A DNA stretch of 32,000 nt from Pirellula staleyi DSM 6068 (GCA_000025185.1 CP001848.1:5310001-5342000); one strand, 5' to 3'; counted from the stretch's first letter, positions 10,813-26,704 are shown. A program made the numbers and translations. The notes: generated by a model not told the origin, from the sequence alone.

Positions 10813-11063
10813 CTCAGCCTCAGATTTTCCATGTGGCTGCAGGAAAGCCCGCGCCTTGATGCATTCACAGATGATGCATGCACAGCAGCACTAGCAAGTC
10901 GCTGATGTGTCGCGCTCACGTGGTACTTTGCGCCCTCTAGTAAAGCTTTTCCGACAAACGTGGCTTTAACGGTCACAAAAGGTTGAACGACAAGGAAAGG
11001 TTTGACGATACCCTAACGCGAGGGGCTCAAGTCAGCTGTTACTCTGTCGGTGGAGAGACACGG

Positions 11064-12494
11064 ATGTCGTTTCCTAAGTCGGTGCTGGTCGCGATCACCT
11101 GCATCTTGGTTAGTACACCACTCTTCGCGCAAACGTCGACACCACGGCGTGCTACGTCGCCTGCGACAACATCTCGCTTGCCAGCCTCGAGCTCGCCGAG
11201 CCCCAGGACTTCTTCCGCCAGCACCTCGCGGGCACAGCCCGCTATCTATCGCGCGCCGACGACACAGCGTGCCCAGCCTGCCAGCTATGCCAGTGAAGTT
11301 CCACCGGAACTCTACGAAACCGACGCCTACGCCGCTGGTCCATCGAGCAGCGACTATGGCCCTGCGTGCGACGGCTGTGGTGGTCCCAGCTGCGGGGCAC
11401 AAGGATGCTGTGCCCCTGGTTGTTTCACCGGCTGGGGATGCTGCGATCTTTACGTCCGGGCCGAGTACCTGATGTGGTGGTCGAACGGCGCAAACGCACC
11501 AGCACTCGTCACCGAAAGTCTCCCCGGCATTCCGCAGGCCAATGCGGGGGTCCTCGGAAGCCCTGGGACCTCGATCCTCTATGGCGACGAAAATCTCGAC
11601 AGCGATCTGCGAAGCGGAATTTTGTTCGGCATTGGTGGTTGGTGCGATCCTGGTCACACGATCGGCTGGGAAGTTAACTACGCCTATCTCGGCGAAGACA
11701 ACCAAGACTTCTACGGCGACAACACCACCAGCACCATTCTCGCCCGCCCCTTTTTTAACACCCAAACCGGCGCGCAAGATTCGCGATTGATCAACTACCC
11801 TGGTCTTGTGAGTGGCAGTGTGGGAATCGATGCCACCACCGAGTTCCAATCGCTCGAAGCGGTCATTCGCAGCTGTTTCATGCAATCGTGCTACGGCCGC
11901 ACCGATTTCATTTTGGGCTATCGCTATGCCAACCTCACCGAGCAAGTGCGGATCGAAGAATCGACCCTCGCTCTCTCCGGGGTCATCGCCGGTACGACGA
12001 TCGACATCGTGGACGACTTCAAGACCCTCAACGAATTCAATGGCGTGAACCTCGGCTTCATCACCGAACGCCGAATCAATCCTTGCTGGAGCTATGAGTT
12101 CACTGCCAAGGTGGCACTCGGCACCACCAAATCAACCGGCACAATTCGCGGCCAACGCACCACCACTAACACGCTCGGAACCTCGACCACCAACGGTGGC
12201 CTTCTGGCGCTCGACACCAATATTGGCGACTACTCGCAAACTGCGTTCAGCGCAATGCCAGAACTCGGAATTCAGTTGCGCTACGACCTCAATCCTTGCT
12301 GGTCAGCGACCTTTGGCTACAGCGTGCGCGCGATCACCAACACCATGCGAGCAGCCGAGCAGATCGATACCACGATCAACCCGACCCAAATTCCGCCGGG
12401 AACTTTCACCGGCGCAAACCGCCCTGACTTTCTGTTTGGTGAATCGGTGTTCGTCGCTCAGGGACTCAACTTTGGCCTCCAGTGCGCTTTCTAA
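11064..12494 (+). CDS. BBP7-family (planctomycete DUF1551-type) outer-membrane beta-barrel protein
   Basis: Start chosen at ATG 11064, with GGAGAG 7 nt upstream. The signal peptide is MSFPKSVLVAITCILVSTPLFAQ. An S/T/P/R-rich linker and a Cys/Gly-rich patch (CDGCGGPSCGAQGCCAPGCFTGWGCC) follow. Then comes DLYVRAEYLMWWSNGANAPALVTES...GTSILYGDENLDSDLRSGILFGIGGW and alternating amphipathic strands, ending ...GLNFGLQCAF (terminal Phe, an OMP beta-signal). The family name is recalled from memory, not searched. Confidence 0.7.
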   Translation: MSFPKSVLVAITCILVSTPLFAQTSTPRRATSPATTSRLPASSSPSPRTSSASTSRAQPAIYRAPTTQRAQPASYASEVPPELYETDAYAAGPSSSDYGPACDGCGGPSCGAQGCCAPGCFTGWGCCDLYVRAEYLMWWSNGANAPALVTESLPGIPQANAGVLGSPGTSILYGDENLDSDLRSGILFGIGGWCDPGHTIGWEVNYAYLGEDNQDFYGDNTTSTILARPFFNTQTGAQDSRLINYPGLVSGSVGIDATTEFQSLEAVIRSCFMQSCYGRTDFILGYRYANLTEQVRIEESTLALSGVIAGTTIDIVDDFKTLNEFNGVNLGFITERRINPCWSYEFTAKVALGTTKSTGTIRGQRTTTNTLGTSTTNGGLLALDTNIGDYSQTAFSAMPELGIQLRYDLNPCWSATFGYSVRAITNTMRAAEQIDTTINPTQIPPGTFTGANRPDFLFGESVFVAQGLNFGLQCAF

Positions 12495-12555
12495 AGCCAA
12501 GCGATTCTGGAGCGATTGAAACCGAATCGGATGATGCTGAAAGAGGCTGGGCGAT

Positions 12556-14244
12556 TTAATAGACATCTTTCTTCAAGCGTCCTGATTTCAACCACTCCTG
12601 CAGCTTCTTTTTCGCTTCGTCGGCAGTGAGATGTCCCTGCTCGACGATGATCTGCTGCAGTGTCTTCTCGACATCCGCCGCCATCCGCTTAGCGTCGCCG
12701 CAAATGTAAACCACTGCACCGCCAGCAAGCCACTGCCATAGCTCGGCTGCATGCGCGAGCATTTCATGCTGCACGTAGCGTTTCTCCACTTGGTCGCGTG
12801 AGAACGCCAGCGACAGCCGCGTGATCACACCTCGCGAGACAAAGTCCTCGAGTTCCGACTGATAGAGATAATCCTTCTCGCGCGATTGATTCCCAAAAAA
12901 CAGCCACGATTTGCCCGGCATCTTCAGCCGATCGCGATGCTGTAAGAACCCACGAAACGGCGCGATCCCAGTCCCGGGACCAATCATGATGATCGGCGTG
13001 CTGGGGTCGGCGGGCAGGCGAAACTTCGACGGATGCACGAACACCCGAATCGAATCGCCCGGTTGCAATCGAACCCCTGCATAGTGCGATGCAATTCCAA
13101 ATCGACGCTCCTCACCAGCCCGGTACTCAGCTACCCCCATCGTTAAATGAACTTGCAGCGGATGAGCTTGCTGCGATGAAGCAATCGAATAGAGACGTGG
13201 TTGCAGCGGCGGAAGTTTTTCAACAAACGTCTCGATCGATGCGATACGAATCGAGAAACGGTTGATGAGGTCGGCAATCGATGCGAGCAGCAGTGGGTTC
13301 TCGTCAGCAGTGAGTCCCTCTTCAATCACGCGCCGCGCATCGCTCGCGCCAATCTGTGCAAAGTATTCGAGCAGCCCGACGTTTGCCTTGTTAATCACCA
13401 CTTGCTGGAGCAGCAGTGTGCGTAGCGATTGGGGTTCCTCGTCACCGCGCGTGATAAGTTGCTCGCCCGAGTGCTGCAGCGCCTCGAGAAGTCGCTCGAC
13501 CATCGCGGGATCATTCTCGGGGAGAATGCCGAGACTATCTCCCGGTTCATAAGTGAGGTTCGACGTGCCTAAATCGATCACCACATGACGCGTATCTTTG
13601 CCGGCATCCAGTTCCGTCAGTCGATCGTTGGAGATGAGTCGGGCGATGAGTGGATTCTTCTTCGACGTCCCCAGCAGCCCCTTGGCATGCGCAGCTGTTC
13701 CGTTTGCGATCCCCACAGCTGCGGCAGGAGCAGAGTCATTAGAAGTCTGCCCATAGGACCCATGGCCATTCTGAGAATGACCGTTTTGGCCGTTCGTTTT
13801 CGCCGGATTGCTCGCATGTTCCGCGAGGAGCTTTTTCAGCGTTTTGGCGGTTGGAGTTCCACCTGGCGAGCAGCGTGTGAGGTCCTTTTCTTCGCCTCGA
13901 GCGACAGCTTCGGCATAGGTTTGACAGAGATAGCCGCACGATCCACAGTCGAGCTGCGCCATGGCTGACATCAGCTTGAGTTCGAGCGGCCGATCGCTGG
14001 CCAGGGCAACCCTTTCATCTATAGAGAGGGACGAATCGCGCCACGGAAACTCCTCGGGCGCTAGCGGTGCGACAGCTGGAGGCTCGAGCACGGCAACGCT
14101 GCTGTGCGAAGATGTTACTGGTGACATCACGGCAGCTGTGCCACCAGAATCGCGCGCGGTGAGCATCGCGGCGAAGAAGCCATTCAACCACGCGCGCTGC
14201 GCTGGCGAAAATGGTGCCGAGTCGGGGATCACCGGAATTTTCAT
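12556..14244 (-). CDS. CysJ-like FAD/NAD(P)H oxidoreductase with an RnfB-type [4Fe-4S] domain in place of the flavodoxin domain
   Basis: The C-terminal 370 aa are a ferredoxin-NADP reductase / CysJ FAD module (RLYSIASS, GPGTGIAPFRGFLQ, VYICGDAKRMAADVEKTL, ends ...KDVY). Aa ~95-140, QLDCGSCGYLCQTYAEAVARGEEKDLTRCSPGGTPTAKTLKKLL, aligns with the E. coli RnfB segment [44 protein letters not shown] (recalled). No FMN/flavodoxin-like region is visible. Its ATG overlaps the nirA stop (ATGA at 14241-14244). Confidence 0.8.
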   Translation of the reverse strand: MKIPVIPDSAPFSPAQRAWLNGFFAAMLTARDSGGTAAVMSPVTSSHSSVAVLEPPAVAPLAPEEFPWRDSSLSIDERVALASDRPLELKLMSAMAQLDCGSCGYLCQTYAEAVARGEEKDLTRCSPGGTPTAKTLKKLLAEHASNPAKTNGQNGHSQNGHGSYGQTSNDSAPAAAVGIANGTAAHAKGLLGTSKKNPLIARLISNDRLTELDAGKDTRHVVIDLGTSNLTYEPGDSLGILPENDPAMVERLLEALQHSGEQLITRGDEEPQSLRTLLLQQVVINKANVGLLEYFAQIGASDARRVIEEGLTADENPLLLASIADLINRFSIRIASIETFVEKLPPLQPRLYSIASSQQAHPLQVHLTMGVAEYRAGEERRFGIASHYAGVRLQPGDSIRVFVHPSKFRLPADPSTPIIMIGPGTGIAPFRGFLQHRDRLKMPGKSWLFFGNQSREKDYLYQSELEDFVSRGVITRLSLAFSRDQVEKRYVQHEMLAHAAELWQWLAGGAVVYICGDAKRMAADVEKTLQQIIVEQGHLTADEAKKKLQEWLKSGRLKKDVY

Positions 14245-16070
14245 GCTACCTCCTTCATCGCCACACTCGAGTTGGCAATCACACGAGTCAATTCATCGAG
14301 CGTTCGTTTACGCGACCAATCGGCAAACGTTTGCTCGCGAAAATCTCGGCCATCATTCCAAGCGATGAGCAAACGCTCGACGATGCTGGGCATCTCGGTC
14401 GCAGGGATACTCGCTTGAAGCTGTCGTCCAATTCCGCGATCGTCTCCAAATCCACCACCCACGAACAAGTGATACCCTTCGACCATTTCTTCCCCTTGCG
14501 CCACCTTCGTTCCGAGCAGGCCAATATCTCCAATCGCATGCTGTGCACACGAATGATGACAACCAGTCAGATGAATGTTCACCGGCAGATCGAGCTGAAT
14601 CTTGGACTCGAGATAAGTGGCGAGTTTCAGTGCATGTTGCTTCGTGTGAGCAGCAGCGAACTTGCAACCAGCAGCTCCCGTGCAGGCGACGAGTCCACTC
14701 CGAACGTTCGTAGCTGAGGTGCAGAGACCGGTTGCTTCGATCGCTGCTTGGACCGCAGGAATGTCGTCGGTTTTGATGTCGGAGATCAGCAGATTTTGCC
14801 AAACCGTGAGTCGAATGGTGCCACTTCCATAACGATCGGCAACCTGGGCAAGATCACGCATCTGCTGAGCGCTGAGACGTCCGACCGGGAGTACCACACC
14901 GACATAGTGCAGCCCCGGCTGTGCTTGGGGATGGAAACCGAGGTGAGCGCCAGACACCGCTTTCGTGCGTGGTAGCTCGACATACTCCCGGGGTACCTGT
15001 CGCAGCGGTTTGCCATACGATTTCTCGACGAGTTTCAGAAACTCGGCCTGACCGAGTCGATCGAGGACATACTTGAGACGTGCCCGCTTGCGATCGGTCC
15101 GATCACCTTCCTGCAGAAAAACCCGGAGCACGGCAGCAGCGAGGTCGACACATTCACACTCGCGCAGCAGAATGCCACAGTCACTTGCAAAATCGCCATG
15201 ACCAGTGATGCCGCCGAGTTCCATCCGGAAAAAAATCTCCGGAGCACTGGTTCCGTCGAGCGACCCTCGCACCGCAAAGAAACCGATATCGTTGGTGTCA
15301 GCGAGTGTTGTGGTGCGACCTCCACCGTCGAACGAGATGTTGAACTTTCGCGGTAAGCCATACATTTCAGGATGCTGCAGAATGTAGTGGTTCATTTTTC
15401 GTGCAAGAGTGCGCGTATCGATGATTTCTTCGGGATCGATGCCAGAGGTCGGCGGAATGGTGATGTTGCGAATATTGTCGGCGCCACTTCCGCGCGTAAT
15501 CACTCCGAGTTCGACGAGTCCATCGATCACCTCCAGGGGATACTCGGCCGGGATCTCTCGCAGCTGAAGATTGGAGCGCGTGGTGACGTCGGTATATCCC
15601 CCAGCGAACTTTTCCGCGATGTCGGCGATGCCACGAAACTGATGCGAGTTCGTCATACCTCCTGCAAAACGAAGGCGACACATGAACGCATTTTGGGCAG
15701 GGGCCACGTGAAATAAACCGTGGTATTTATAGAGAAATACGTCGGTTCCTTTGGGAAATCGAGCTTCACTTGCCGCCTGCTCCATGGCGTCTCGCATTTG
15801 AAACGGGTCTTTCGATCGCTTCGCTTGCTCCTCACTGGAAAGTTTGAGCCCCCGGTCGAGAAACTGATTCTGCGCGACACCATGCGCGAGCCGCGCATCG
15901 GGCGGGAGGGGACTCGGCACCGTTTCGGGCGTTGTCGCTGGGAGCATCCCCAGGGCCGAGAGGGTCGAAGCAAAGGTGGGATTTCGACTCGTTTGCAGAG
16001 CATCGCAGCCCGCTGCAAATCCCATCAGATACTGCTGCTGTTCTTCGGAAAACGTTTGTGGAGCGTTCAT
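14241..16070 (-). CDS. nirA: Siroheme/[4Fe-4S] ferredoxin-type nitrite reductase (NirA family)
   Basis: A 609-aa product from ATG 16070, with GAAGGA upstream and an ATGA overlap with the nasA stop. It shows the duplicated nitrite/sulfite reductase half-domains and the cluster/siroheme Cys motifs (...VACTGAAGCKFAAAHTK... and ...LTGCHHSCAQHAIGDIGLLG...). Calling it a nitrite rather than sulfite reductase rests on the nrt/nasA context. Confidence 0.85.
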   Translation of the reverse strand: MNAPQTFSEEQQQYLMGFAAGCDALQTSRNPTFASTLSALGMLPATTPETVPSPLPPDARLAHGVAQNQFLDRGLKLSSEEQAKRSKDPFQMRDAMEQAASEARFPKGTDVFLYKYHGLFHVAPAQNAFMCRLRFAGGMTNSHQFRGIADIAEKFAGGYTDVTTRSNLQLREIPAEYPLEVIDGLVELGVITRGSGADNIRNITIPPTSGIDPEEIIDTRTLARKMNHYILQHPEMYGLPRKFNISFDGGGRTTTLADTNDIGFFAVRGSLDGTSAPEIFFRMELGGITGHGDFASDCGILLRECECVDLAAAVLRVFLQEGDRTDRKRARLKYVLDRLGQAEFLKLVEKSYGKPLRQVPREYVELPRTKAVSGAHLGFHPQAQPGLHYVGVVLPVGRLSAQQMRDLAQVADRYGSGTIRLTVWQNLLISDIKTDDIPAVQAAIEATGLCTSATNVRSGLVACTGAAGCKFAAAHTKQHALKLATYLESKIQLDLPVNIHLTGCHHSCAQHAIGDIGLLGTKVAQGEEMVEGYHLFVGGGFGDDRGIGRQLQASIPATEMPSIVERLLIAWNDGRDFREQTFADWSRKRTLDELTRVIANSSVAMKEVA

Positions 16071-18361
16071 AGTCCTTCTCCCATGCGATCGACGCGCACA
16101 GCGCAGTCTTTGTAGGAAGGTTGGCGCGAATGAGGATCGTAGTGAGCGAGCGTCAGTTGGTTCACGGCAGCGTAGTGCATCGGGGCAAAGATGGTCCCAG
16201 GAGCGACCGTCGTCACCACGCAAGTGCGAGCAACAATCGTTGCGCGTCTCGAGCGCACTCGTACCGCACATGCATGGGTGATCCCAAGTCGCTCGGCATC
16301 TTCGGGATGTATTTCGATGTAGAGATCAGCCGGGTAGAGCTTACGCAGGACCGCCGATTTCGAAGTGCGCGTTTGCGTATGCCACTGCGCGACACTCCCT
16401 CGTCCGGTGAGCAAAAGGAGCGGAAATTCTGCGTTCGGCTGTTCAGGCATCGGACGTGGCGCGTCGAACAACAACTTGGCGCGGCCATCGGGGTGAAAGA
16501 ACTTTCCCTCTGAAAATAAACGCCGCTGCTGACTACCGATCGGCATCGGGCGCTCACTGAATCGGCTAGCCGCTGCAGCATCGCTCTCGGTCCAAGGCCA
16601 CTGTATGCCCCCCGCCTCATCGAGATGCTGATAGCCGCGAATTCCGGTGATATCGCAAGGTCGTCCACGCGAAAGTTCTTGAAGCACTGCAAAAACCTTG
16701 GCTGGCGAATCGAGTTCTTCGAATTGCTCGAGTCCCCCCCAGTACTTGGCAAGCAAGCGGAAGATCGAGAAGTCAGCCAAGGCAGACCCGGGCGATCGCT
16801 GCACACGTTTGATACGTCCCACACGGCGCTCGGAATTGATGAACGTTCCTTCTTTCTCGCCCCAAGGTGCAGCAGGGAGAATCAGATGCGCGAGCTGCGC
16901 AGTTTCCGTGGTGGTGTAAATATCTTGCACCACGAGGAAGTCGAGCTGTGCGAGAGCCTGGCGTGTCTCGGCCTGCTCGATCCAGGAATGAGCGGTGTTA
17001 GTGGCGATGATCCAGAGCCCACGAATCTTTCCTGCACGAACTGCATCGAGAATCTCGTCGTACGCCATGCCGCTCGAGCTAGGAATACGTGCCGCGTCGA
17101 TCCCTAGGATTTTTGCCACCTCGTGACGATGATCTTCACGCGTAAAATCACGACCTCCAGCGAGTGCCGAGGTGTTGCTGAACAGCCGCGAACCCATCGC
17201 ATTGCACTGACCAGTAATCGAGTTGGCACCCGTTCCTGGCCTACCAAAGTTTCCGGTGACGAGCGCCAAGTTGATAATACTCTGCGCCGTACGCACCCCC
17301 TGGTAACTTTGATTCACTCCCATCGTCCACCAGAACGATGTGCGCTCCGACTGATGCACCAGCCTGGCAAATCCCTCAATCTGCGACAGCGTCAATCCCG
17401 TCTCTAGCTGCAACCGTTCGAGGGTAAATGCCTCGAGAAACGCTTGAAATTCGGCATATCCGGAGGTGTGCTGCTCGATGTAATCCCGATCCATCCAGCC
17501 ACGCTCGATGAGCAAACGGGTGATGCCGTAGAAGAATGTTTGATCCGACTTGGGGCGAATAGCGAGATGCATGTGAGCCGCTTGTGCCGTCTCACTTTGG
17601 CGTGGATCGATCACCACGATTTTGGCTTGGCGACGATTCGCGAGGACACGCTCCCACAAAATCGGATGGGCAATGCACGGATTAGCGCCGACAAAAACCA
17701 GCAGGTCTGATTCTTCGAAATCGGAGTAGGTGTAAGGGGGGGCATCGAACCCGAGCGATTGCTTATAAGCGGTCGCAGCAGTTGCCATGCATTGCCGTGT
17801 ATTACTATCGCCGTGCAAAAAACCGAAACCAAATTTTGCGACCGCGCCGAGTAAGAACATCTCTTCGGTCGCGATCTGTCCGGTGCTCAGGAATGCCACA
17901 CTTTCAGGGCCATACTTGGCCTGGATCGACTGAAATTGATTTCGGAAATGCTCTGCGGCTTGATGCCAATCGATCGGTCGAAACTCGCCTGTGGATTGAT
18001 CGCGAAAAAGGGGAGTCGTCGCGCGATCGGGAGCCGACAGTGGCGCGAGACCTTCCCAACCTTTCGGGCAGGCCATGCCGAGGTTCACAGGATAGGACGT
18101 ATCGGGCGAGACATTGATCGCTTCACCATCGCGTAGATGAATCTTGAGTCCACAGCCAGTGGAGCAAAAGCCGCACACCATCGTGGTGGTGGTTTCCGGG
18201 GCGAGACGTTGCGGCAAGAGGGGAAGGCCGAGTTGTTCGTTTTGGAGCGAGAGTTCGCGAGTGAGAGGGCCATCCCAAGTACGGAGGAGCGAGTTTTCAT
18301 GGCTCGCGCGCGGCGCATCGTCGAGGTGGATCATTTGCAGAAGTGGCAACAGCTTGATCAT
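16067..18361 (-). CDS. nasA: Assimilatory nitrate reductase catalytic subunit (molybdopterin oxidoreductase, NasA/NarB type)
   Basis: It has the N-terminal [4Fe-4S] motif VCGFCSTGCGLKIH...MACPKG followed by molybdopterin oxidoreductase and dinucleotide-binding regions along the full length. The start is taken at ATG 18361 because it forms ATGA with the upstream stop; ATG 18334 (MIHLDD) is also possible. No twin-arginine signal and no C-terminal 2Fe-2S or flavin domain is present. Confidence 0.88.
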   Translation of the reverse strand: MIKLLPLLQMIHLDDAPRASHENSLLRTWDGPLTRELSLQNEQLGLPLLPQRLAPETTTTMVCGFCSTGCGLKIHLRDGEAINVSPDTSYPVNLGMACPKGWEGLAPLSAPDRATTPLFRDQSTGEFRPIDWHQAAEHFRNQFQSIQAKYGPESVAFLSTGQIATEEMFLLGAVAKFGFGFLHGDSNTRQCMATAATAYKQSLGFDAPPYTYSDFEESDLLVFVGANPCIAHPILWERVLANRRQAKIVVIDPRQSETAQAAHMHLAIRPKSDQTFFYGITRLLIERGWMDRDYIEQHTSGYAEFQAFLEAFTLERLQLETGLTLSQIEGFARLVHQSERTSFWWTMGVNQSYQGVRTAQSIINLALVTGNFGRPGTGANSITGQCNAMGSRLFSNTSALAGGRDFTREDHRHEVAKILGIDAARIPSSSGMAYDEILDAVRAGKIRGLWIIATNTAHSWIEQAETRQALAQLDFLVVQDIYTTTETAQLAHLILPAAPWGEKEGTFINSERRVGRIKRVQRSPGSALADFSIFRLLAKYWGGLEQFEELDSPAKVFAVLQELSRGRPCDITGIRGYQHLDEAGGIQWPWTESDAAAASRFSERPMPIGSQQRRLFSEGKFFHPDGRAKLLFDAPRPMPEQPNAEFPLLLLTGRGSVAQWHTQTRTSKSAVLRKLYPADLYIEIHPEDAERLGITHACAVRVRSRRATIVARTCVVTTVAPGTIFAPMHYAAVNQLTLAHYDPHSRQPSYKDCAVRVDRMGEGL

Positions 18362-20016
18362 CGGTCGTCTCCCGGCATTTTGGCGGGTGTGCATGCCTGG
18401 AAGTACAGCATTCGCTCGAGCAGATTTCCGAGGAGCAGAGTAACTGCACTGACTACCGCGATTGGGAAAACGGGAGTTTGTTGCATTGCGCTTTCTTGTG
18501 AGCTGGTAGCAATCAGGAGCAGAATCATCGGCCCCAGAAATCCGCCACAAACGATCGCGCTCATTTGCATTTGAAATGCATCCGACAGTGCATTACGCAG
18601 CAGAAGTGCGGTGCGCTCGAGACTTCGCGATGGATACTGCTGTCGCCTGCGGCGCGATTCATTCAGCGAAAACGCTTGCACGGAGGCCACCATCAGCGAA
18701 GCGAGCGCCAGCAGCGCCACAAGTGTTGGCTGATTACGGCTCGCGAGAATCACCACTGTGGCGACACCAAGCCCTAAACCAAGAGTGCTTCCCAAAAATC
18801 GCGGGAAGGTGCGCGAGGCATTCCAGTAATCGCGACCTGTGGCGACGTAGATCATCGCGGAGGAAATCACACCAACGATTCCCACGCAGAGTGCCAGCGA
18901 CGAGAGGCACGAGGCAAGAGTCGTAAAGCTGAGTAGCGCGAGCAAGGCAGCAAGGCCAAGCAGACCCCCATAGGGTCCAAGTGTGACGATTTCGCGACTG
19001 AGCCAACTGGTTCGCAGTCCCATCCATGCCCGCCAAGCACCAAACGGTTTTCCGAGATGAAGAGCCGCTGCATTTCCACCCACCAGACCGGTCGCTGCAC
19101 TCACGATCAGCAGTGCGAGCGACGCACGAGCATCAATGGCTCCCGCAGCAAAAAATATTCGCTCGAGCAGCAGAGTGCCGACCGACATTTGGGTTAGCAC
19201 CAGCATCGCGACGAGTGGAAAATGGGGATGAGCAATGTGCGGAAGCGTGTCGTTGGCGGCGACGATACCCGCCAATTCTCCCTGAATATCCGCAACATTT
19301 TGCAGTTTGGCGGAGCGATAGATGGTGGTGGGAATCGTGAGCGAGGGGTCGGGGCTAGCCGCGAGAAACGTCGACGTTTGGGCGCGCTGTCGCGCGGTCT
19401 GCTGCGAAACGATCGTGATCCGAATCGCCTGATTCGGACAACCGGCGACACAAGCCGGAGCATCTCCCGCCTCGAGTCGCTGGCGGCACATATCGCACTT
19501 CCGCACAATCCCTTTCGCGGCGCTATACTGCGGCACTTCGTAGGGGCACATCAAAATGCAGTACTGACATCCAATGCATTGATCGTCGAGATGGCGCACA
19601 ATCCCCGTAAGTGGATCTTTGTCGTACGCTTGGACGGGGCATCCCTGCAAACAGCCAGGCTCGACACAGTGGTGACAAGCTGTCGTCACATACTGCTGAG
19701 GACGACTTGCATCGCTGATCCCGAGCAGCATCCCGACATGTCGCCAAGTCTCTGCTTCCTCGAGTCCATTCAGGTTATGGCAAGCGGTGACGCAAGCTTT
19801 GCATCCCGAGCAGGCATCGAGATCGACTTCAAACGCCAACTGCTCGCCAGACTTCGGCGACGACGTGGGAAGTAGCGCGCGATAATGCGCGGCATGATCC
19901 ATCGTCTGCTGCTCGTGCCAACTGGAAAACTCCCCCACAGCCGTCAGTTGCTGCTGTTCGAGGAGCAATTGCCGTAGGAAATTATCTGCAGAAACGGTGG
20001 GAATCCGCTTCTCCAT
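18358..20016 (-). CDS. Fusion protein: DmsB/NrfC-like four-cluster ferredoxin (N-terminal) plus DmsC/NrfD-like 8-TM membrane anchor (C-terminal)
   Basis: There are four Cys clusters: CSGCKACVTAC, CHHCVEPGCLQGCP, CIGCQYCILMCP and CDMCRQRLEAGDAPACVAGCP. About eight hydrophobic helices follow, with the DmsC-type loop HLGKPFGAWRAWMGLRTSWLSREI after TM2. The start is taken at MEKRIP (20016), 13 nt after the nrtD stop. No signal or Tat motif is present. Confidence 0.8.
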   Translation of the reverse strand: MEKRIPTVSADNFLRQLLLEQQQLTAVGEFSSWHEQQTMDHAAHYRALLPTSSPKSGEQLAFEVDLDACSGCKACVTACHNLNGLEEAETWRHVGMLLGISDASRPQQYVTTACHHCVEPGCLQGCPVQAYDKDPLTGIVRHLDDQCIGCQYCILMCPYEVPQYSAAKGIVRKCDMCRQRLEAGDAPACVAGCPNQAIRITIVSQQTARQRAQTSTFLAASPDPSLTIPTTIYRSAKLQNVADIQGELAGIVAANDTLPHIAHPHFPLVAMLVLTQMSVGTLLLERIFFAAGAIDARASLALLIVSAATGLVGGNAAALHLGKPFGAWRAWMGLRTSWLSREIVTLGPYGGLLGLAALLALLSFTTLASCLSSLALCVGIVGVISSAMIYVATGRDYWNASRTFPRFLGSTLGLGLGVATVVILASRNQPTLVALLALASLMVASVQAFSLNESRRRRQQYPSRSLERTALLLRNALSDAFQMQMSAIVCGGFLGPMILLLIATSSQESAMQQTPVFPIAVVSAVTLLLGNLLERMLYFQACTPAKMPGDDR

Positions 20017-20029
20017 CGGTGCCGGAAGA

Positions 20030-20941
20030 TTAACCACAGCGAGTCTCCGGCACTTCAGGCGTGGGGAAGACTCGCATGCCATCGCGCGGCACTACTGCTG
20101 TTGCTGCTACCGGGATTGCAGGAACAGGCTCAGCTTCCGCAATCGTAGATTTTAGAGCCGTCGGAACGAGGTGAGCATGTTCGAGGAAATCGAGCATGCG
20201 ATGTCGGAGCAGATGATACTCGGGGTGAGCCAACACAGCGGTGCGATGACGCGGTCGATCAAAAGGGACGTGCAGAATCTCTCCCACCGTCGCCGCAGGA
20301 CCGCTGGTCATCATCACCACACGGTCGGACATGAAGAGTGCTTCGTCGATGTCGTGCGTCACCATCAGTGTGGTCGCTTTGGTTTGCGCGAGGAGTTCGA
20401 TAAGCACCTCTTGCAGCTCGAAACGAGTGAGCGAGTCGAGCATCCCAAAGGGTTCATCGAGCAGGATCATTTTGGGAGCCAGTGCAAAGGCACGCGCAAT
20501 TCCGACGCGCTGCTGCATCCCTTGCGAGAGCTCTTTTGCGAGCTGTTTGGCCGAATCGGCAAGCCCTACAAGTTCCAGGTAGTAGTGCGCCATCGCGCGC
20601 CGCTCGGCCCGCGGCACATGCGGGAAAACACGGTCAATTCCGAGCAAAACGTTATCAATCGCCGTGAGCCAAGGGAGCAGGCAAGGGGACTGAAAAACCA
20701 CGCCCCGATCGGGACCAGGGCCATCGATTTCGCGTCGCGCCACGACGATCTGACCGCGCGAGATGGTCGTCAATCCGGCAATCATCGAGAGGACGGTGCT
20801 CTTCCCACAGCCGGAGTGACCAATCAGCGAAACGAACTCCCCCTCGGCGATGTCGAGATTGAAATTGTCGACGATCACCACATCGCCACTCGTTTGGGGA
20901 TAGGTTTTGGCGACGCGATAAAGTTCGACATAGTCGGCCAT
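20030..20941 (-). CDS. nrtD: Nitrate/nitrite ABC transporter ATP-binding protein (NrtD/CmpD type)
   Basis: [15 protein letters not shown]...[19 protein letters not shown] (Walker A), [16 protein letters not shown] (signature), [15 protein letters not shown] (Walker B), [25 protein letters not shown]. This closely resembles the cyanobacterial NrtD pattern as I recall it. The longer ORF, to 21028, starts at GTG and adds a non-protein-like leader. Confidence 0.85.
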
Positions 20942-20987
20942 GATGCACTCGCGATAGCTGGCTGGTGATCGACAAAATTCATCCGCA

Positions 20988-21044
20988 CCGAGGGGCTGGG
21001 CGCGAGGACTACCGAAGTAGCCTCGCACACGCAGCCCCTCTCGG
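20988..21044 (-). other. Extended intercistronic stem-loop between the two ATPase genes
   Basis: Minus strand: CCGAGAGGGGCTG-cgtgt-GCGAGGCTAC-TTCG-GTAGTCCTCGC-gcc-CAGCCCCTCGG. The inner 10-bp stem has one bulged A and a UUCG tetraloop. The outer 11-bp stem has a 2-nt bulge. No U-tract follows. Confidence 0.6.
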
Positions 21045-21070
21045 CGGAGAAGGTGAACGGTTGAAGGGAC

Positions 21071-21955
21071 TTAGCTACTCGCCAGCGCAGAGGGACGACG
21101 TAGCGATCGCGCGGGGAGTTGGCGAGGCTGATACTTGGGGGCACTGATACCTTGACGTTGCTGGCTGCTCGGAGCCTTGCGTTTGCTATCTACAAGTGTT
21201 TGCGTGATCTCGGCACGCAGCTGTACGAACGTTGGATCGTGAGCGAGTTCGGCCAGATTACGCGGGCGAGCGAGTGCCACTTCCACCGAGGTCCCCAGTG
21301 TTGCGCTCGGACCGGGCGAGAGTGGAACGATCCGATCGGCCAGCATTAGCGCTTCGTCGACGTGGTTGGTGATCAGCACGATTGTTTTGTTTTCACGCAG
21401 GAAAATCTGCTGTAATTCTTTTTGCAGCTCGCCACGGGTCAGCGCGTCAAGGGCTCCGAGGGGCTCGTCGAGCAGCAGCACTTGGGGGTCCATTGCCAGA
21501 GCGCGAGCCAAGGCCACGCGCTGCCGCATGCCGCCCGACAGCTGCGCGGGCTTGCGATCTTTGGCATGCGCGAGATTCACAAGTTCCAGATAGTGCATCG
21601 CGCGATCGCGACGATCGGCTGTCGATTTTCCTGGCGTGACCTGCGAAACCGCGAGCAGAACGTTATCGAGCGCCGAGAGCCAGGGCAGCAGCGAGTAGTT
21701 TTGAAACACTACGCCGCGCTCGGGACCAGGCTCGCTCACAGCGGCACCGTCGAACAGAACCTGTCCCACATCGGGCTGCGTGAGTCCGGCGAGCAGAGAA
21801 ACTAGTGTCGACTTACCCGATCCTGAGTAACCCACGATGGCCACCATCTCGCCGCGGCGAACGTCGAGCGAAACATCGTGCAGCACTTCGCGGCGCGCGA
21901 TCCCCGCTCCATACCCTTTCGACACATGCTGCAGCGATAAGCAGATGGGCATCAT
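21071..21955 (-). CDS. nrtC: Nitrate/nitrite ABC transporter ATP-binding protein (NrtC-like ATPase domain only)
   Basis: MMPICLSLQHVSKGYGAG...IVGYSGSGKSTLVSLLAGL (Walker A), LSGGMRQRVALARALA (signature), LLLDEPLGALDALTR (Walker B), ITNHVDEALMLADRIVPLSPGP. It lacks the C-terminal NrtA-like regulatory domain of cyanobacterial NrtC. The tracked ORF's first 141 codons overlap nrtB out of frame and are discarded. Confidence 0.8.
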   Translation of the reverse strand: MMPICLSLQHVSKGYGAGIARREVLHDVSLDVRRGEMVAIVGYSGSGKSTLVSLLAGLTQPDVGQVLFDGAAVSEPGPERGVVFQNYSLLPWLSALDNVLLAVSQVTPGKSTADRRDRAMHYLELVNLAHAKDRKPAQLSGGMRQRVALARALAMDPQVLLLDEPLGALDALTRGELQKELQQIFLRENKTIVLITNHVDEALMLADRIVPLSPGPSATLGTSVEVALARPRNLAELAHDPTFVQLRAEITQTLVDSKRKAPSSQQRQGISAPKYQPRQLPARSLRRPSALASS

Positions 21956-22026
21956 TGCGAAGATCCTGGAAGTGAGCAGATATCGATTGAAAACGACAGG
22001 GAAACCAGCGAGAGAAACACGAAGCT

Positions 22027-22866
22027 CTAGGCATAGCGAACCCAGCGTTCGACGATGCTCATCAAGCGATCGAGCGCGAGCCCCACCGCGCCGATCGTGA
22101 GGATGCACAGCAAAATGTGCTCGTAAATCAGGCTGTTGTACTCTTGCCAGAGAAACCCACCGACTCCGGGTACGCCGGTGAGCATCTCGGCGGCCACAAT
22201 CACGAGCCAGGCGATGCCGAGGCTCAATCGAAAACCGGTGAACATGTAGGGGAGGGCAGCGGGGAGCATGATTTTCCAGAGCATCGTCCAGCTCGACAGC
22301 CGCAGGACACGGGCGACATTCAAATAGTCTTGAGGAATGGCTCGCACTCCTTGGGCCGTGTTGATGACCGTCGGCCACATCGAGCAGAGGGCGATGGTGA
22401 AGATGGCCGCTGGTTCCGACTTACCAAAGAGGACGAGTCCTAGCGGCAGCCAGGCCAGTGGTGAAACAGGCCGTAGGAACTGAATCACCGGATCGAACAT
22501 GCGAGTCAGCAGCGGCGAGCTACCGAGTGCAAAGCCGAGGGGAGCTCCGAGGACGATCGCCAGCAGATAGCCTTTGGCGACGAGCACCAAGGAGTACCAG
22601 GTGAATCGCAGGATGCCTTGATCGAGTTCGCCCCGCTTGGCAAAGGGCTCCATCACATACAGCCGACTCATCTCCCAGGTCTTCAGCGGCGAGGGGAGAC
22701 TGGGAGCCCACGTGGCGGACGAGATCCACCAGACGGCGACAAACAGGAGCGCCCCGACCAGTGGCAGGAGGATAAAGTCGCCAGGAAATCGTTTGTCTTG
22801 CATCGGATTCACGCTTTGCTCAAGTCCCAGATAACGCCAGACCACACCGCGAACTGCAGCGCCCAC
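22027..22866 (-). CDS. nrtB: Nitrate/nitrite ABC transporter permease
   Basis: A 6-TM permease with the NrtB-type segment LRPVSPLAWLPLGLVLFGKSEPAAIFTIALCSMWPTVINTAQGVRAIPQDYLNVARVLRLS. The GTG at 22866 overlaps the nrtA stop (TAGTG). An alternative ATG lies at 22803 (MQDKRF). Confidence 0.85.
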   Translation of the reverse strand: MGAAVRGVVWRYLGLEQSVNPMQDKRFPGDFILLPLVGALLFVAVWWISSATWAPSLPSPLKTWEMSRLYVMEPFAKRGELDQGILRFTWYSLVLVAKGYLLAIVLGAPLGFALGSSPLLTRMFDPVIQFLRPVSPLAWLPLGLVLFGKSEPAAIFTIALCSMWPTVINTAQGVRAIPQDYLNVARVLRLSSWTMLWKIMLPAALPYMFTGFRLSLGIAWLVIVAAEMLTGVPGVGGFLWQEYNSLIYEHILLCILTIGAVGLALDRLMSIVERWVRYA

Positions 22867-24203
22867 TAGCCATCTTTCCGGCTATGGACCTGGAACGAGA
22901 GGGCATATTCCTCGGGCTTCGCGGGGTCGAAAGTCACACCGTCGAAGAGTGTCTCGGGGGTGGAGTCTTCGCCCGGATGCTGAAAACCGATCTCTTGCAT
23001 CGCTTCGTTGTAAAGATCGGGGCGGAGGACCTGCTGGCAGACTCCGTCGTAGTCGGGAGCCTCGTCGACCATCCCCCAGCGACGGAACTGCGACAGCCAC
23101 CACTTCACATATTTCTGCTGCGGATAGTTACAGTGGCGGCTGCTGAAGATCATGTAGTGATCGTCTTTTTTCGTGCGTCCATCGCCGTAGTCGTAGTCCC
23201 CGAGCAAACGCCCCTGAATGATCTCTTGCGGGCCATTGATGTACGTGGGAGCCGAAACGATCTTGGCTTGCTCGGGACGGTTGCCGAGGTCATCGAGCCA
23301 TACACTCGCTTCGTGGAGCGCTTTAAGAACTGCCTTCACCGTCTTGGGGTTCTGCTCTGCAAATTCCCCCGTGAAAGCGCACACTTTTTCGGGATGGTCG
23401 GGCCACATCTCTTGGGTGGTGATGGCGGTATAGCCAATGCCGTCTTGAATGGCGCGAGCATTCCAAGGCTCGCCAACGCAGAAGCCATCCATCTTGTCGA
23501 TCTTCATGTTGGCTACCATTTGGGGTGGCGGAATGGTGGCCAAAGCGATATCGCGATCGGGATTAATCCCACCTGCCGCCAGGAAGTAGCGCATCCACAT
23601 GGCATGCGTTCCGGGAGGAAACGTCATGGCGAAGGTCATCGGAGTCCCTGCAGCTGCAGCAGCAGCGACGATCGGCTTCAAAGCTTTTGGATCGGCGGCG
23701 ACTTTGCCTTTGAGCGAAGCCTTGAGAGAAATCGCTTGTCCGTTGCGATTCATGATCCAAGGAATCACCATCGGCCGTTTGGGGGAACCGAGGAGCCCCA
23801 TCGTCGAGGCGATCGGCATGCCAAACAGCATGTGGGTGGCGTGAATGTCGCCGTTGGAGAGCGAGTCGCGAATCGCGGCCCAACTGGCCCCTTTGCGAAC
23901 GGTGGAGTTGATGCCGTATTTTTTGAAGAGCCCCTTTTCGTGGGCGATCACAATTGGCGAGCAATCGGTGAGAGCAATGATGCCGAAGTTGAGATCGGTG
24001 ACCTCGGGTGCTTCACCAGCGATGGTTCCGGCGGGAACAGCACCGACGTCGGCCGACGCAGAGGCATCGGCGGCAGGAACTCCGCAGCCCGCGATGAGAG
24101 TCGAACCACTGACAGCAGCGGCAGCAGCGAGAAAGCTGCGGCGGGAGACTTGGCTGGATTGCAGAGCAGGGGACTGCAGGGGGCGAGGCGCTGATTTCGA
24201 CAT
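22866..24203 (-). CDS. nrtA: Nitrate/nitrite ABC transporter substrate-binding lipoprotein
   Basis: The start is taken at ATG 24203. MSKSAPRPLQSPALQSSQVSRRSFLAAAAAVSGSTLIAGC combines a twin-arginine motif with a lipobox. The mature part is NrtA/CmpA-like (NFGIIALTDCSPIVIAHEKGLFKKYGINSTV...GEPWNARAI...). The upstream 67 codons of the tracked ORF are not protein-like. Confidence 0.85.
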   Translation of the reverse strand: MSKSAPRPLQSPALQSSQVSRRSFLAAAAAVSGSTLIAGCGVPAADASASADVGAVPAGTIAGEAPEVTDLNFGIIALTDCSPIVIAHEKGLFKKYGINSTVRKGASWAAIRDSLSNGDIHATHMLFGMPIASTMGLLGSPKRPMVIPWIMNRNGQAISLKASLKGKVAADPKALKPIVAAAAAAGTPMTFAMTFPPGTHAMWMRYFLAAGGINPDRDIALATIPPPQMVANMKIDKMDGFCVGEPWNARAIQDGIGYTAITTQEMWPDHPEKVCAFTGEFAEQNPKTVKAVLKALHEASVWLDDLGNRPEQAKIVSAPTYINGPQEIIQGRLLGDYDYGDGRTKKDDHYMIFSSRHCNYPQQKYVKWWLSQFRRWGMVDEAPDYDGVCQQVLRPDLYNEAMQEIGFQHPGEDSTPETLFDGVTFDPAKPEEYALSFQVHSRKDG

Positions 24204-24278
24204 CGGCTGTGCTCTCGAAAAGGCGGTGGAGTGCTCGCGGCGGGCAAAGTGACCACGCTGCGACCGCCTGCTGAAGAA

Positions 24279-24294
24279 AGCTACCGGTGTGCCA
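24279..24294 (-). promoter_or_regulatory. Candidate sigma-54 (-24/-12) promoter for the nrt-nas-nir operon
   Basis: The minus strand reads TTGGCACACCGGTAGCTT. GG and GC have exactly the consensus spacing (TGGCAC-N5-TTGC), with one mismatch in the -12 box (TAGC for TTGC). The predicted start is ~24268, about 65 nt upstream of the nrtA ATG. This is a pattern match only. Confidence 0.4.
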
Positions 24295-24325
24295 AAGAAA
24301 GTGCGTGCAGCGTGACCAGCAGCCT

Positions 24326-24354
24326 GTTTGGCTGCGAAATTTCCGCCGCCAAAC
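24326..24354. promoter_or_regulatory. 29-nt dyad-symmetric element upstream of the candidate nrtA promoter
   Basis: The plus strand reads GTTTGGC-t-GCGAAATTTCCGC-c-GCCAAAC. The outer 7-bp arms are perfect and the inner 13-mer is nearly palindromic. The centre lies ~47 nt upstream of the -24 GG. Confidence 0.4.
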
Positions 24355-24586
24355 TGCAAAACGCCAATTCCACGGAGGGGCTTGGGAATTCTTTTGCCGC
24401 GCAATCTGGCGGCGCTGCTGCCTAAGAATCACACCGACCCTAAGAGCGCCAGGGTGATCGCGCCGCGACCACTTCTGGTCGCTGCCGAACCGCTGAGGCA
24501 AAAAAAGGTTATTGGCGGGCTATCGACCTTAACGTTTACGAAAACTTCGGCAACTCGATAGATTCTGAGCAATGATCTGCCCCACT

Positions 24587-24624
24587 GGTGTCGACAAAAC
24601 AGGTGTCGCCAGCACATTCGACAC
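24587..24624. promoter_or_regulatory. Three copies of GTGTCG(A/C) in the divergent nrtA/porin intergenic region
   Basis: GGTGTCGAC lies at 24587-24595 and GGTGTCGCC at 24602-24610 (direct, 15-nt period). TCGACAC lies at 24618-24624 (inverted). The cluster is ~90-125 nt upstream of the porin ATG. Confidence 0.35.
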
Positions 24625-24711
24625 GGCCTGCCCGTAGCAATGTTCGCGATTTCTCTCGGCGGAGAAAATTCGGGATGGAGCCCTAGTTTCTTTCGCGGAG
24701 CGAATCCGATC

Positions 24712-26364: not shown

Positions 26365-26704
26365 GTCGAAGGAACGCTTCATCCGGCGCGTGATGGAAGT
26401 CGATGCATCCGCAATACTGTGCATCTGCGGGCGATAATCCCGGCGGTGAGACGAGCGCAGAACGTCACCGCTGGTTGCATGGCGTCAGCCGCTACGCTAC
26501 CAATCGGGCATCGCATGCTCGCTCGCTAGGCATTTTGCCCGGCGTGTTTCCTTAGCGGCATCAACCTCTCCCCAGCCAGCGTGTAGCGGAATTCGCTTTT
26601 CCACTACATATGTAGCCGACGCGGCACACGGTTTGCCGCCCATAGATGATAAGGTTCCACCAGTGGCGAGTGAATCTCGAGCGACAGACGCAGCGGGCGA
26701 GGCC

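Follow-up and report, generated by a model that had tools for sequence, protein, structure and literature searches.

A 32,000-nucleotide (nt) stretch of the Pirellula staleyi DSM 6068 genome (CP001848.1:5310001-5342000), here called the window, was analysed. Eight genes on its minus strand, at positions 12556-24203, were read as a complete nitrate-to-ammonium assimilation operon of a Pirellulales-type planctomycete, composed of three modules. The probability of this reading was put at about 0.6. The genes encode the four components of an NrtABCD importer, a DmsB-DmsC fusion protein, the nitrate reductase NasA, the nitrite reductase NirA and a protein combining an iron-sulfur (FeS) domain with a flavin adenine dinucleotide (FAD)/NAD(P)H module. 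Pfam and NCBIfam models agreed on these assignments, as the original prediction had proposed from the DNA alone.

In the proposed pathway, NrtABCD would import nitrate, assisted by a divergently encoded outer-membrane porin. NasA would reduce nitrate in the cytoplasm with electrons from the fusion protein encoded upstream of it. In the fusion, one polypeptide would combine a wire of four [4Fe-4S] clusters, as in DmsB, with an eight-helix anchor of the DmsC type that binds menaquinol. The anchor would be inverted compared with Escherichia coli DmsC, so that both the quinol site and the FeS domain are turned towards the cytoplasm. NasA and the fusion would form a complex in the style of DmsABC and PsrABC, acting as an inward-facing menaquinol:nitrate oxidoreductase that is probably non-electrogenic. 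Nitrite would be converted to ammonium by NirA with six electrons, passing from NAD(P)H via FAD and a [4Fe-4S] cluster to NirA. NirA and the flavoprotein would constitute a two-subunit enzyme similar to CysJ/CysI, with an RnfB-type FeS domain instead of the flavin mononucleotide (FMN) domain. The two subunits are probably assembled through a common N-terminal helix motif. We infer the actual electron donors, complex formation and co-transcription from the sequence features laid out below.

The fusion gene (18358-20016/20082, minus strand) showed Pfam matches to Fer4_11 and DmsC, the latter with 53.7 bits. It encodes 552-574 amino acids (aa), the alternative start M23 being located at 20016. 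The protein comprises a conserved N-terminal segment of about 50 aa, four [4Fe-4S] motifs and an eight-helix anchor of the DmsC/NrfD type. In an alignment of 32 homologues, 16 cysteines were invariant and formed four ferredoxin-type [4Fe-4S] motifs, with codons between 19438 and 19812. The N-terminal half aligned to E. coli DmsB with an hhalign probability of 99.9, and the C-terminal half to residues 6-280 of the 287 residues of E. coli DmsC with a probability of 97.6. An AlphaFold2 model (predicted local distance difference test, pLDDT, 85.8; predicted template modelling score, pTM, 0.86) contained eight transmembrane helices. Foldseek related its FeS half to the four-cluster subunits ArrB, FdnH, PsrB and NarH of complex iron-sulfur molybdoenzymes (CISM) and its membrane half to the NrfD-like anchors ActC and PsrC, the latter from the menaquinone-bound polysulfide reductase. 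The anchor signature H320-L-G-x-P...R...S-W-x-S-R-E342 (numbered from M23) was invariant in the 32 homologues, which span three phyla. Its loop, encoded at 18991-19059 on the minus strand with the codons checked, is the predicted quinol site and aligned to H65...E87 of DmsC with the same 22-residue spacing.

The orientation of the anchor was deduced from charged residues. The loops on the FeS side held 8.6 lysine and arginine residues as a mean of the 32 homologues, those on the opposite side 0.9. The positive-inside rule therefore predicts that quinol site and FeS wire face the cytoplasm. The pattern of E. coli DmsC leans the opposite way. At their real N-termini, the fusion and NasA lacked a twin-arginine motif, which NrtA does carry. 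Matches of the twin-arginine translocation (Tat) motif to upstream-extended reading frames were rejected as non-coding read-through. The fusion hence combines two CISM features, a four-cluster protein with 16 cysteines and a haem-free eight-helix anchor with quinol-site residues. Tat-dependent export of the catalytic dimer, a third CISM feature, is not indicated, and the predicted orientation is opposite. Judged by these sequence features, the fusion and NasA fit an inward-facing menaquinol:nitrate reductase. Residues 1-55 of the fusion form a conserved, clade-specific segment (LLxEQQxLTAVERFSxxH) with no match in solved homologues.

NasA (16067-18361, minus strand) was recognised by the Pfam models Molybdop_Fe4S4, Molybdopterin and Molydop_binding. 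It is predicted to be a cytoplasmic nitrate reductase carrying molybdenum bis-pyranopterin guanine dinucleotide (Mo-bisPGD). The best solved relative was Desulfovibrio desulfuricans NapA with 357 bits, and C191 aligned with its Mo ligand C140. C63, C66, C70 and C98 are the FS0 cysteines. The features of an assimilatory nitrate reductase were present: the Mo-bisPGD fold, an N-terminal [4Fe-4S] cluster, the cysteine Mo ligand, the lack of a Tat signal expected of a cytoplasmic enzyme, and nrtABCD and nirA as flanking genes here and in related loci. Scores remained below the equivalog cut-offs, with 465 bits against 1000 for NF041323 and 432 against 1100 for NF047855. NasA also carries an N-terminal extension of about 55 aa (LLRTWDGPLT...; consensus LLRxWDGPLTxDLxLxPGxFGLG) that is clade-specific and unmatched in solved homologues. 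By sequence, it is a member of a distinct subclade. The N-terminal segments of NasA and the fusion may be docking elements.

The pairing of the fusion with nasA was followed through two genome sets. The first was a phylum sample of 201 genomes, of which 13 besides P. staleyi had a full-length fusion. The second was a species-level genome collection, in which at least 592 stretches encoded relatives of the fusion; gene order was read in the best 80 loci. These relatives belonged to Planctomycetota, Verrucomicrobiota and Myxococcota, including Sorangium. The combined set comprised 95 loci, 15 from the phylum sample and 80 from the species-level collection, with 92 assessable fusion/nasA pairs. 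nasA was located directly downstream of the fusion in 13 of 13 cases in the phylum sample and in all 79 assessable loci of the best 80, across three phyla; the 80th stopped at a contig edge. The converse was also observed. In the 201-genome sample, the occurrence of NasA proteins with at least 55% identity and an alignment reaching the N-terminal extension coincided exactly with that of the fusion. In the two genomes whose fusion is more divergent, NasA was 41-43% identical, and all other NasA-like matches were at or below 39% identity and lacked the extension. Since the NasA clade and the fusion co-occur in both directions, they behave as one unit. Three planctomycetes of the phylum sample without the fusion (G012, G161 and G178) had NasA-like open reading frames (ORFs) of about 1200 aa. 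These probably represent NasA fused to a reductase module, which would be another self-sufficient design.

NirA (14241-16070, minus strand) matched the NCBIfam model NF007126, 'NirA family', over residues 3-604 with 896 bits against a cut-off of 523 and is thus a member of this family. On the CysI model it reached 154 bits only. The sirohaem/[4Fe-4S] cysteine motifs were present as C463-x5-C and C504-x3-C. An N-terminal extension of about 70 aa with the motif F-S-x-E-Q-x-x-Y-L-x-G-F was conserved in homologues. The presumed preference of NirA for nitrite over sulfite is indirectly supported by a separate CysI/Sir gene in the genome and by the operon context.

The flavoprotein gene (12556-14244, minus strand; Pfam FeS, FAD_binding_1 and NAD_binding_1) encodes 562 aa. 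On NF004859, named 'sulfite reductase subunit alpha', the protein scored 755.7 bits against a cut-off of 432, covering profile positions 10-539 of 539. An N-terminal helix motif (7-30) and a linker precede its RnfB-type [4Fe-4S] domain, which a low-complexity linker (150-187) connects to the CysJ-type FAD/NAD(P)H module (190-562). The AlphaFold2 model showed the same succession of N-terminal helix, linker, FeS domain, linker and FNR module. The four-cysteine FeS domain covers residues 62-148, and its cysteines C100, C103, C107 and C125 were invariant in 57 homologues. Residues 194-562 matched the FAD/NADPH fragment of the E. coli sulfite reductase flavoprotein (SiR-FP/CysJ; 1DDG) with 296 bits. 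No Pfam match to a flavodoxin-type FMN domain was found in the flavoprotein, which places it outside the diflavin reductases.

NirA adjoined a CysJ-like partner in 21 of 21 assessable loci, which lie in nas clusters of two phyla. The domain between the N-terminal motif and the FAD module differed between them. It was a [4Fe-4S] domain in 11 of 11 planctomycete loci and a flavodoxin in all eight classifiable verrucomicrobial loci (L037, L038, L040, L044, L066, L070, L087 and L102). The verrucomicrobial partner is a canonical diflavin CysJ with the motifs GSQTGxAE... and STxGDGEPP and the same N-terminal motif. This exchange of FMN and [4Fe-4S] domains supports a function of the FeS domain as electron shuttle between FAD and NirA.

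A helix motif shared by the N-termini of NirA and the flavoprotein had been noted separately in the original prediction. It lies at 14167-14211 in the flavoprotein and at 16008-16052 in NirA, both on the minus strand. The N-terminal profiles of partner and NirA aligned with an hhalign probability of 97.2 and an E-value of 4.7e-11, which bears the earlier observation out. The partner profile also aligned to residues 26-48 of E. coli CysJ with a probability of 80.6. These residues are included in the 51-residue region that octamerises SiRFP (bioRxiv 10.1101/2024.06.14.599029). NirA-like genes in loci lacking the partner had neither the motif nor the extension. NirA and the flavoprotein would reasonably be expected to assemble via the shared N-terminal helix.

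The name attached to NF004859 has to be read with care. Its cut-off of 432 bits is loose, as E. coli CysJ itself passes with 444 bits. The neighbour of the flavoprotein was of the NirA family in 21 of 21 loci, and the CysI/Sir gene of the genome stands apart, so a partnership with a sulfite reductase was not found. In the context of nas genes, 'sulfite reductase subunit alpha' is probably a misnomer. A search with NF004859 returned at least 8000 scored cluster representatives, most of them unchecked for the FeS domain; in the ESM Atlas, the family was most common in Pseudomonadota.

Taken together, the loci revealed how the modules are combined. Most fusion-nasA loci encoded a NirB-NirD fusion and a transporter of the major facilitator superfamily (MFS) in place of NirA and its partner. 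The two modules are therefore regarded as independent units and not as one co-evolving pathway. The full eight-gene order was found in G173 (L031), a Pirellulaceae metagenome-assembled genome (L036), Botrimarina (L075), Novipirellula rosea (L082), Rhodopirellula baltica (L090) and the loci L091 and L099. In L074, L100 and L115, it was found as far as the contigs extend. The gene order is thus kept in at least seven other genomes, Pirellulales included. For about three quarters of the 92 assessable pairs, the retrieved stretch also encoded a nitrite reductase that forms ammonium (NirA or NirB-NirD). The remaining quarter mostly had short contigs or nitrate-transporter genes. The genomic context of fusion-nasA pairs is assimilatory throughout.

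These observations bear on several earlier claims. The original prediction would have failed if the two fusion genes were not co-conserved with nasA and nirA in relatives; the opposite was found, with 79 of 79 and 13 of 13 for the fusion and 21 of 21 for the flavoprotein. Its statement that each reductase adjoins a dedicated redox protein holds across the loci, for the fusion with nasA as well as for NirA with the flavoprotein. The view of the operon as a self-contained variant of the Nas pathway was supported, with two qualifications. The two modules are independent and do not represent a single co-evolving pathway. Nor are the redox proteins rare: the fusion occurs in at least 592 species genomes, the flavoprotein fits the curated model NF004859, and both gene families are abundant and routinely annotated.

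Alternative redox partners and enzymes were searched for in the window and in the complete 6.2-Mb single-contig genome. Pfam and NCBIfam scans of the window detected no ferredoxin, NirB/NirD, NasB/NasC-type flavoprotein or sirohaem synthesis gene, in agreement with the original prediction. The intergenic gaps of the operon are too small for any ferredoxin gene. A genome-wide query with NirB-NirD gave generic similarity to pyridine-nucleotide oxidoreductases only, which excluded a NirBD hidden elsewhere. Only two NIR_SIR proteins were encoded in the genome, NirA and a CysI/Sir-type sulfite reductase haemoprotein. The latter (G000:C1:1656602-1658344, L121:5602-7344, minus strand; NF010029, 736 bits) is located 3.7 Mb from the operon. 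A function of NirA as the sulfite reductase of the organism was rejected because of this separate gene. The CysI/Sir gene is solitary and has no CysJ-like neighbour; the sole CysJ-like gene of the genome sits in the nas operon. Three molybdopterin enzymes were detected: NasA, one clear enzyme of the FdhF/YdeP type and one weak partial match. NarG and NapA were not found in the genome, which leaves NasA as the sole molybdoenzyme of the nitrate reductase type. A second nitrate reductase was rejected as the other clear molybdoenzyme is of the FdhF/YdeP type. The SUMT gene for sirohaem synthesis was located about 700 kb from the operon, and nothing in the genome scored above the cut-off of CysG_Nterm (TIGR01470).

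The transport genes precede the fusion gene. NrtA (22866-24203, minus strand), the periplasmic nitrate/nitrite-binding protein of the ATP-binding cassette (ABC) importer, matched Pfam NMT1_2 with 307 bits and has the twin-arginine signal SRRSFL at its N-terminus. The ABC permease NrtB (22027-22866, minus strand) reached 227 bits on TIGR01183 (ntrB; cut-off 209). Two ABC ATPases matched TIGR01184. NrtC (21071-21955, minus strand) scored 281.5 bits, about 10 below the cut-off of 291.8, and NrtD (20030-20941/21028, minus strand) scored 304.7 bits, above it. The set of binding protein, permease and two ATPases thus matches the NrtABCD models, with one ATPase about 10 bits short. The start of nrtC was placed at the ATG at 21955, as the alignments of homologues begin at residues 2-6. 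Homologues of nrtD align from residues 20-33, and its true start is likely the ATG at 20941. The label nrtC is to be qualified: the protein is a plain ATPase and lacks the C-terminal domain, similar to NrtA, that cyanobacterial NrtC has.

Translational coupling of the eight genes had been proposed from overlapping stop and start codons. The three ATGA overlaps were read directly at 18358-18361, 16067-16070 and 14241-14244, exactly where they had been placed, as was TAGTG at 22864-22868, which joins the nrtA stop to the nrtB start. The overlapping starts of nirA and the flavoprotein gene match the N-termini of homologues. The remaining gaps were 71 nt between nrtB and nrtC, 42-129 nt between nrtC and nrtD, depending on the start, and 13 nt or an overlap between nrtD and the fusion. 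The overlaps themselves are thus confirmed, and they are what suggests both coupling and co-transcription. A single, translationally coupled transcript of all eight genes is predicted from them. When 12300-24700 was scanned for promoters and terminators, counts were at or below the shuffled expectation and are uninformative. The sequencing runs listed as containing this DNA were all DNA metagenomes, from drinking water, biofilm, sludge and soil.

A sigma-54-type -24/-12 element, TGGCAC-N5-TAGC, was located at 24280-24294 on the minus strand, 77-91 nt upstream of the nrtA ATG. It was the sole match in the window, with 0.10 expected by chance, and rpoN is present in the genome. Control of the operon by sigma-54 and nitrate is proposed. 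Divergent from nrtA, an outer-membrane beta-barrel of the Alginate_exp family is encoded at 24640-26364 on the plus strand (Pfam, 258 bits). Homologues of it accompanied about 20 of the 95 related nas loci, among them the loci that share the gene order of P. staleyi. It is a likely anion porin associated with the operon and may serve nitrate and nitrite. It is followed on the plus strand by an NtrC-family response regulator (26633-28240) and a hybrid histidine kinase with a PilJ/NarX-type sensor domain (28237-30519), both identified with Pfam. The regulator/kinase pair adjoined the operon also in the two closest loci, L036 and L091. PilJ-type kinases occurred beside many other nas loci, including those of Isosphaeraceae and Sorangium. 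The pair encodes candidate nitrate-sensing regulators. Other ORFs of the window were assigned by Pfam to an NhaA antiporter, an MscS-like channel, a giant cadherin-repeat protein, a BBP7 barrel, the Alginate_exp barrel and two two-component systems. The region 5800-12494, convergent with the end of the nas operon, encodes a 1670-aa protein containing 15 cadherin/Big_9 repeats and, after it, the BBP7 beta-barrel. The presence of a BBP7 porin and the closest relatives are consistent with a planctomycete near Pirellulales.

Several observations weigh against the proposed operon and pathway. Internal promoters could be accommodated in the gaps of 71 nt and 42-129 nt among the nrt genes. The sigma-54 site deviates at one position of its -12 element, and at least one match was obtained in 10 of 100 shuffles. 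The requirement of DmsC H65 and E87 for menaquinol binding and oxidation is taken from the literature. Finally, a small FNR-like gene was located directly upstream of the fusion in the Gimesia-type Planctomycetaceae loci L021-L024, L026, L052 and L113. It encodes a 267-aa protein with FAD_binding_6 and NAD_binding_1 domains that resembles Bradyrhizobium Flp, and lies between nirBD and the fusion (L113:9092-9895, L052:9095-9895). In some organisms, the FeS wire could therefore receive its electrons from NAD(P)H. The nrt gaps would suit a scheme in which the eight genes are not one operon and the transporter and reductase genes are transcribed separately from internal promoters, and in L030, L051 and L083 nrtABCD is indeed apart from or divergent to the reductase genes. 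However, all eight genes are co-oriented here without a terminator signal above chance, the distance from nrtD to the fusion is 13 nt at most, the last four genes overlap and the order recurs in other genomes. Separate transcription was considered rather unlikely. The FNR-like gene could point to a different electron donor. The DmsC-like domain would then do no more than provide a tether in the membrane or connect the enzyme to the quinone pool for regulation, and NasA would receive electrons from NAD(P)H via a flavoprotein, here the FeS-FNR protein and elsewhere the small FNR-like one. The co-encoding of a single FNR-type protein with both reductases in P. staleyi agrees with this, as does the dependence of Bradyrhizobium NasC on the flavoprotein Flp (PMC4724949). 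Yet no FNR-like gene adjoins the fusion in most fusion-nasA loci, and the FeS-FNR or FMN-FNR protein tracks NirA, not NasA. A passive tether would also hardly account for the invariance, across three phyla, of the residues matching DmsC H65 and E87 and of the entire HLGxP...SWLSRE loop. Delivery of NAD(P)H electrons to NasA was judged unlikely.

The role of the nitrate step was likewise considered. A quinol-linked membrane architecture is typical of respiratory CISM enzymes, and without NarG or NapA in the genome the NasA-fusion pair would be the only route of nitrate reduction. It could accordingly serve respiration or redox balancing and not primarily assimilation, as an inward-facing counterpart of NarGHI. 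A quinol site on the cytoplasmic side would release the protons inside, so that no proton-motive force would be gained. The 92 assessable pairs of the 95 loci lie in nitrate-assimilation clusters, and the operon is accompanied by an NtrC-type regulator and a sigma-54-like promoter, all of which makes a respiratory role improbable. For the last two genes, the NCBIfam name of NF004859 and the source annotations suggest a sulfite reductase haemoprotein and flavoprotein that are merely placed beside the nas genes. The match of the FNR half to E. coli CysJ with 296 bits and the lack of another CysJ-like gene in the genome are in line with this. The haemoprotein, however, scored 896 bits as a NirA-family member against 154 bits on the CysI model, and the true CysI/Sir-type gene (736 bits) is found 3.7 Mb away. 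nirA overlaps nasA by ATGA, the pair clusters with nasA in 21 loci of two phyla, and the looseness of the NF004859 cut-off, which E. coli CysJ passes with 444 bits, weakens the argument from the name. A sulfite reductase at this position was considered highly improbable. The preferred reading thus remains an assimilation operon in which NasA would be served by the fusion and NirA by the flavoprotein.

In textbook descriptions of bacterial nitrate assimilation, electrons come from ferredoxin or flavodoxin, or from NAD(P)H via soluble flavoproteins. Planctomycetota, Verrucomicrobiota and Myxococcota use menaquinones, and menaquinol (about -74 mV) is able to reduce nitrate (+420 mV). A broader proposal, put forward tentatively and with less than even confidence, is that an inward-facing, membrane-anchored menaquinol:nitrate oxidoreductase is the usual way of powering the nitrate step in these three phyla. 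The nitrite step would employ a CysJ-derived flavoprotein with a swappable shuttle domain, FMN or [4Fe-4S], co-oligomerised with NirA by means of the common CysJ-type N-terminal helix, and the whole would be a membrane-associated assembly independent of free ferredoxin. If the DmsBC-NasA pair oxidises menaquinol, three large environmental phyla assimilate nitrate on electrons of the respiratory chain. Nitrogen assimilation would then be tied directly to the respiratory quinone pool, and the coupling between redox state, oxygen and nitrogen assimilation would have to be seen differently for heterotrophs of soil, fresh water and the sea. The annotation of metagenomes would also be affected, as the fusion is now labelled generically as '4Fe-4S/DmsC' and the flavoprotein as 'sulfite reductase subunit alpha'. 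The exchange of FMN for [4Fe-4S] represents a natural experiment on CysJ-type electron delivery to sirohaem enzymes, and the shared N-terminal motif offers a testable assembly mechanism. As the operon is present in the cultivable Rhodopirellula baltica and Novipirellula rosea, the predictions are directly testable. Searches of open-access papers and bioRxiv preprints found no report of a DmsB-DmsC fusion paired with NasA or of an FMN-less CysJ-like partner of NirA. What this analysis adds is the module within its entire operon, the exchange of FMN and FeS domains, and statistical backing for the N-terminal motif common to NirA and the flavoprotein.

Among known systems, E. coli DmsABC and Thermus PsrABC have the layout of the proposed complex: the catalytic subunit carries Mo-bisPGD, the FeS subunit holds four clusters, and the quinol anchor is haem-free with eight helices. 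They differ in that the B and C subunits are fused here, no Tat signal is present, the complex is predicted to face the cytoplasm and the context is assimilatory. Furthermore, NasA belongs to the Nas/Nap/Fdh branch and not to the DmsA branch. By literature description, the closest likeness is SoeABC of Allochromatium vinosum (Dahl et al. 2013, cited in PMC6382920). This sulfite:quinone oxidoreductase is a cytoplasm-facing membrane molybdoenzyme without Tat signal, with an FeS subunit and an NrfD/DmsC-like anchor, linked to quinone. Its location at the cytoplasmic side and its link to quinone correspond to what is proposed here. SoeABC differs in the oxidative flow of electrons from the substrate to quinone, in having B and C as separate subunits and in the substrate itself.

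Like the operon described here, classical assimilatory systems have a cytoplasmic Mo-bisPGD enzyme whose N-terminal part binds a [4Fe-4S] cluster, encoded in a nas operon together with transporters and a nitrite reductase. They include NarB, Klebsiella NasA/NasC, Bacillus NasBC, Paracoccus NasC-NasG-NasB and Bradyrhizobium NasC-Flp (PMC4724949). Their donors are soluble, namely ferredoxin, flavodoxin, NAD(P)H flavoproteins or the Rieske protein NasG, whereas the obligate neighbour here is a membrane module of the quinol type. The N-terminal segment of about 55 aa was found only in the NasA clade described here. Cyanobacterial NrtABCD has the same four components and matches the same family models. 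The importer of P. staleyi differs in an NrtC without the C-terminal regulatory domain, a Tat-exported NrtA and an outer-membrane porin gene alongside.

Ferredoxin-dependent NirA of cyanobacteria and plants, P. aeruginosa PA4130 (PMC8092218) and Bradyrhizobium bll4571 (PMC4724949) shares the sirohaem/[4Fe-4S] domains and the ammonium-forming assimilatory role. These enzymes use a free ferredoxin and a separate FNR, whereas a ferredoxin-like domain and an FNR module are united in one adjacent protein here. The alignment of the cyanobacterial NirA model to the P. staleyi protein starts at residue 73, and the extension of about 70 aa is absent there. E. coli CysJ/CysI is likewise a two-subunit sirohaem reductase fed by a CysJ-type FAD/NADPH module, and its octamerisation region matches the N-terminal motif. 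P. staleyi differs in having an RnfB-type [4Fe-4S] domain instead of the FMN domain and a haemoprotein from the NirA family. This NirA itself carries the CysJ-like N-terminal motif, which is absent from E. coli CysI.

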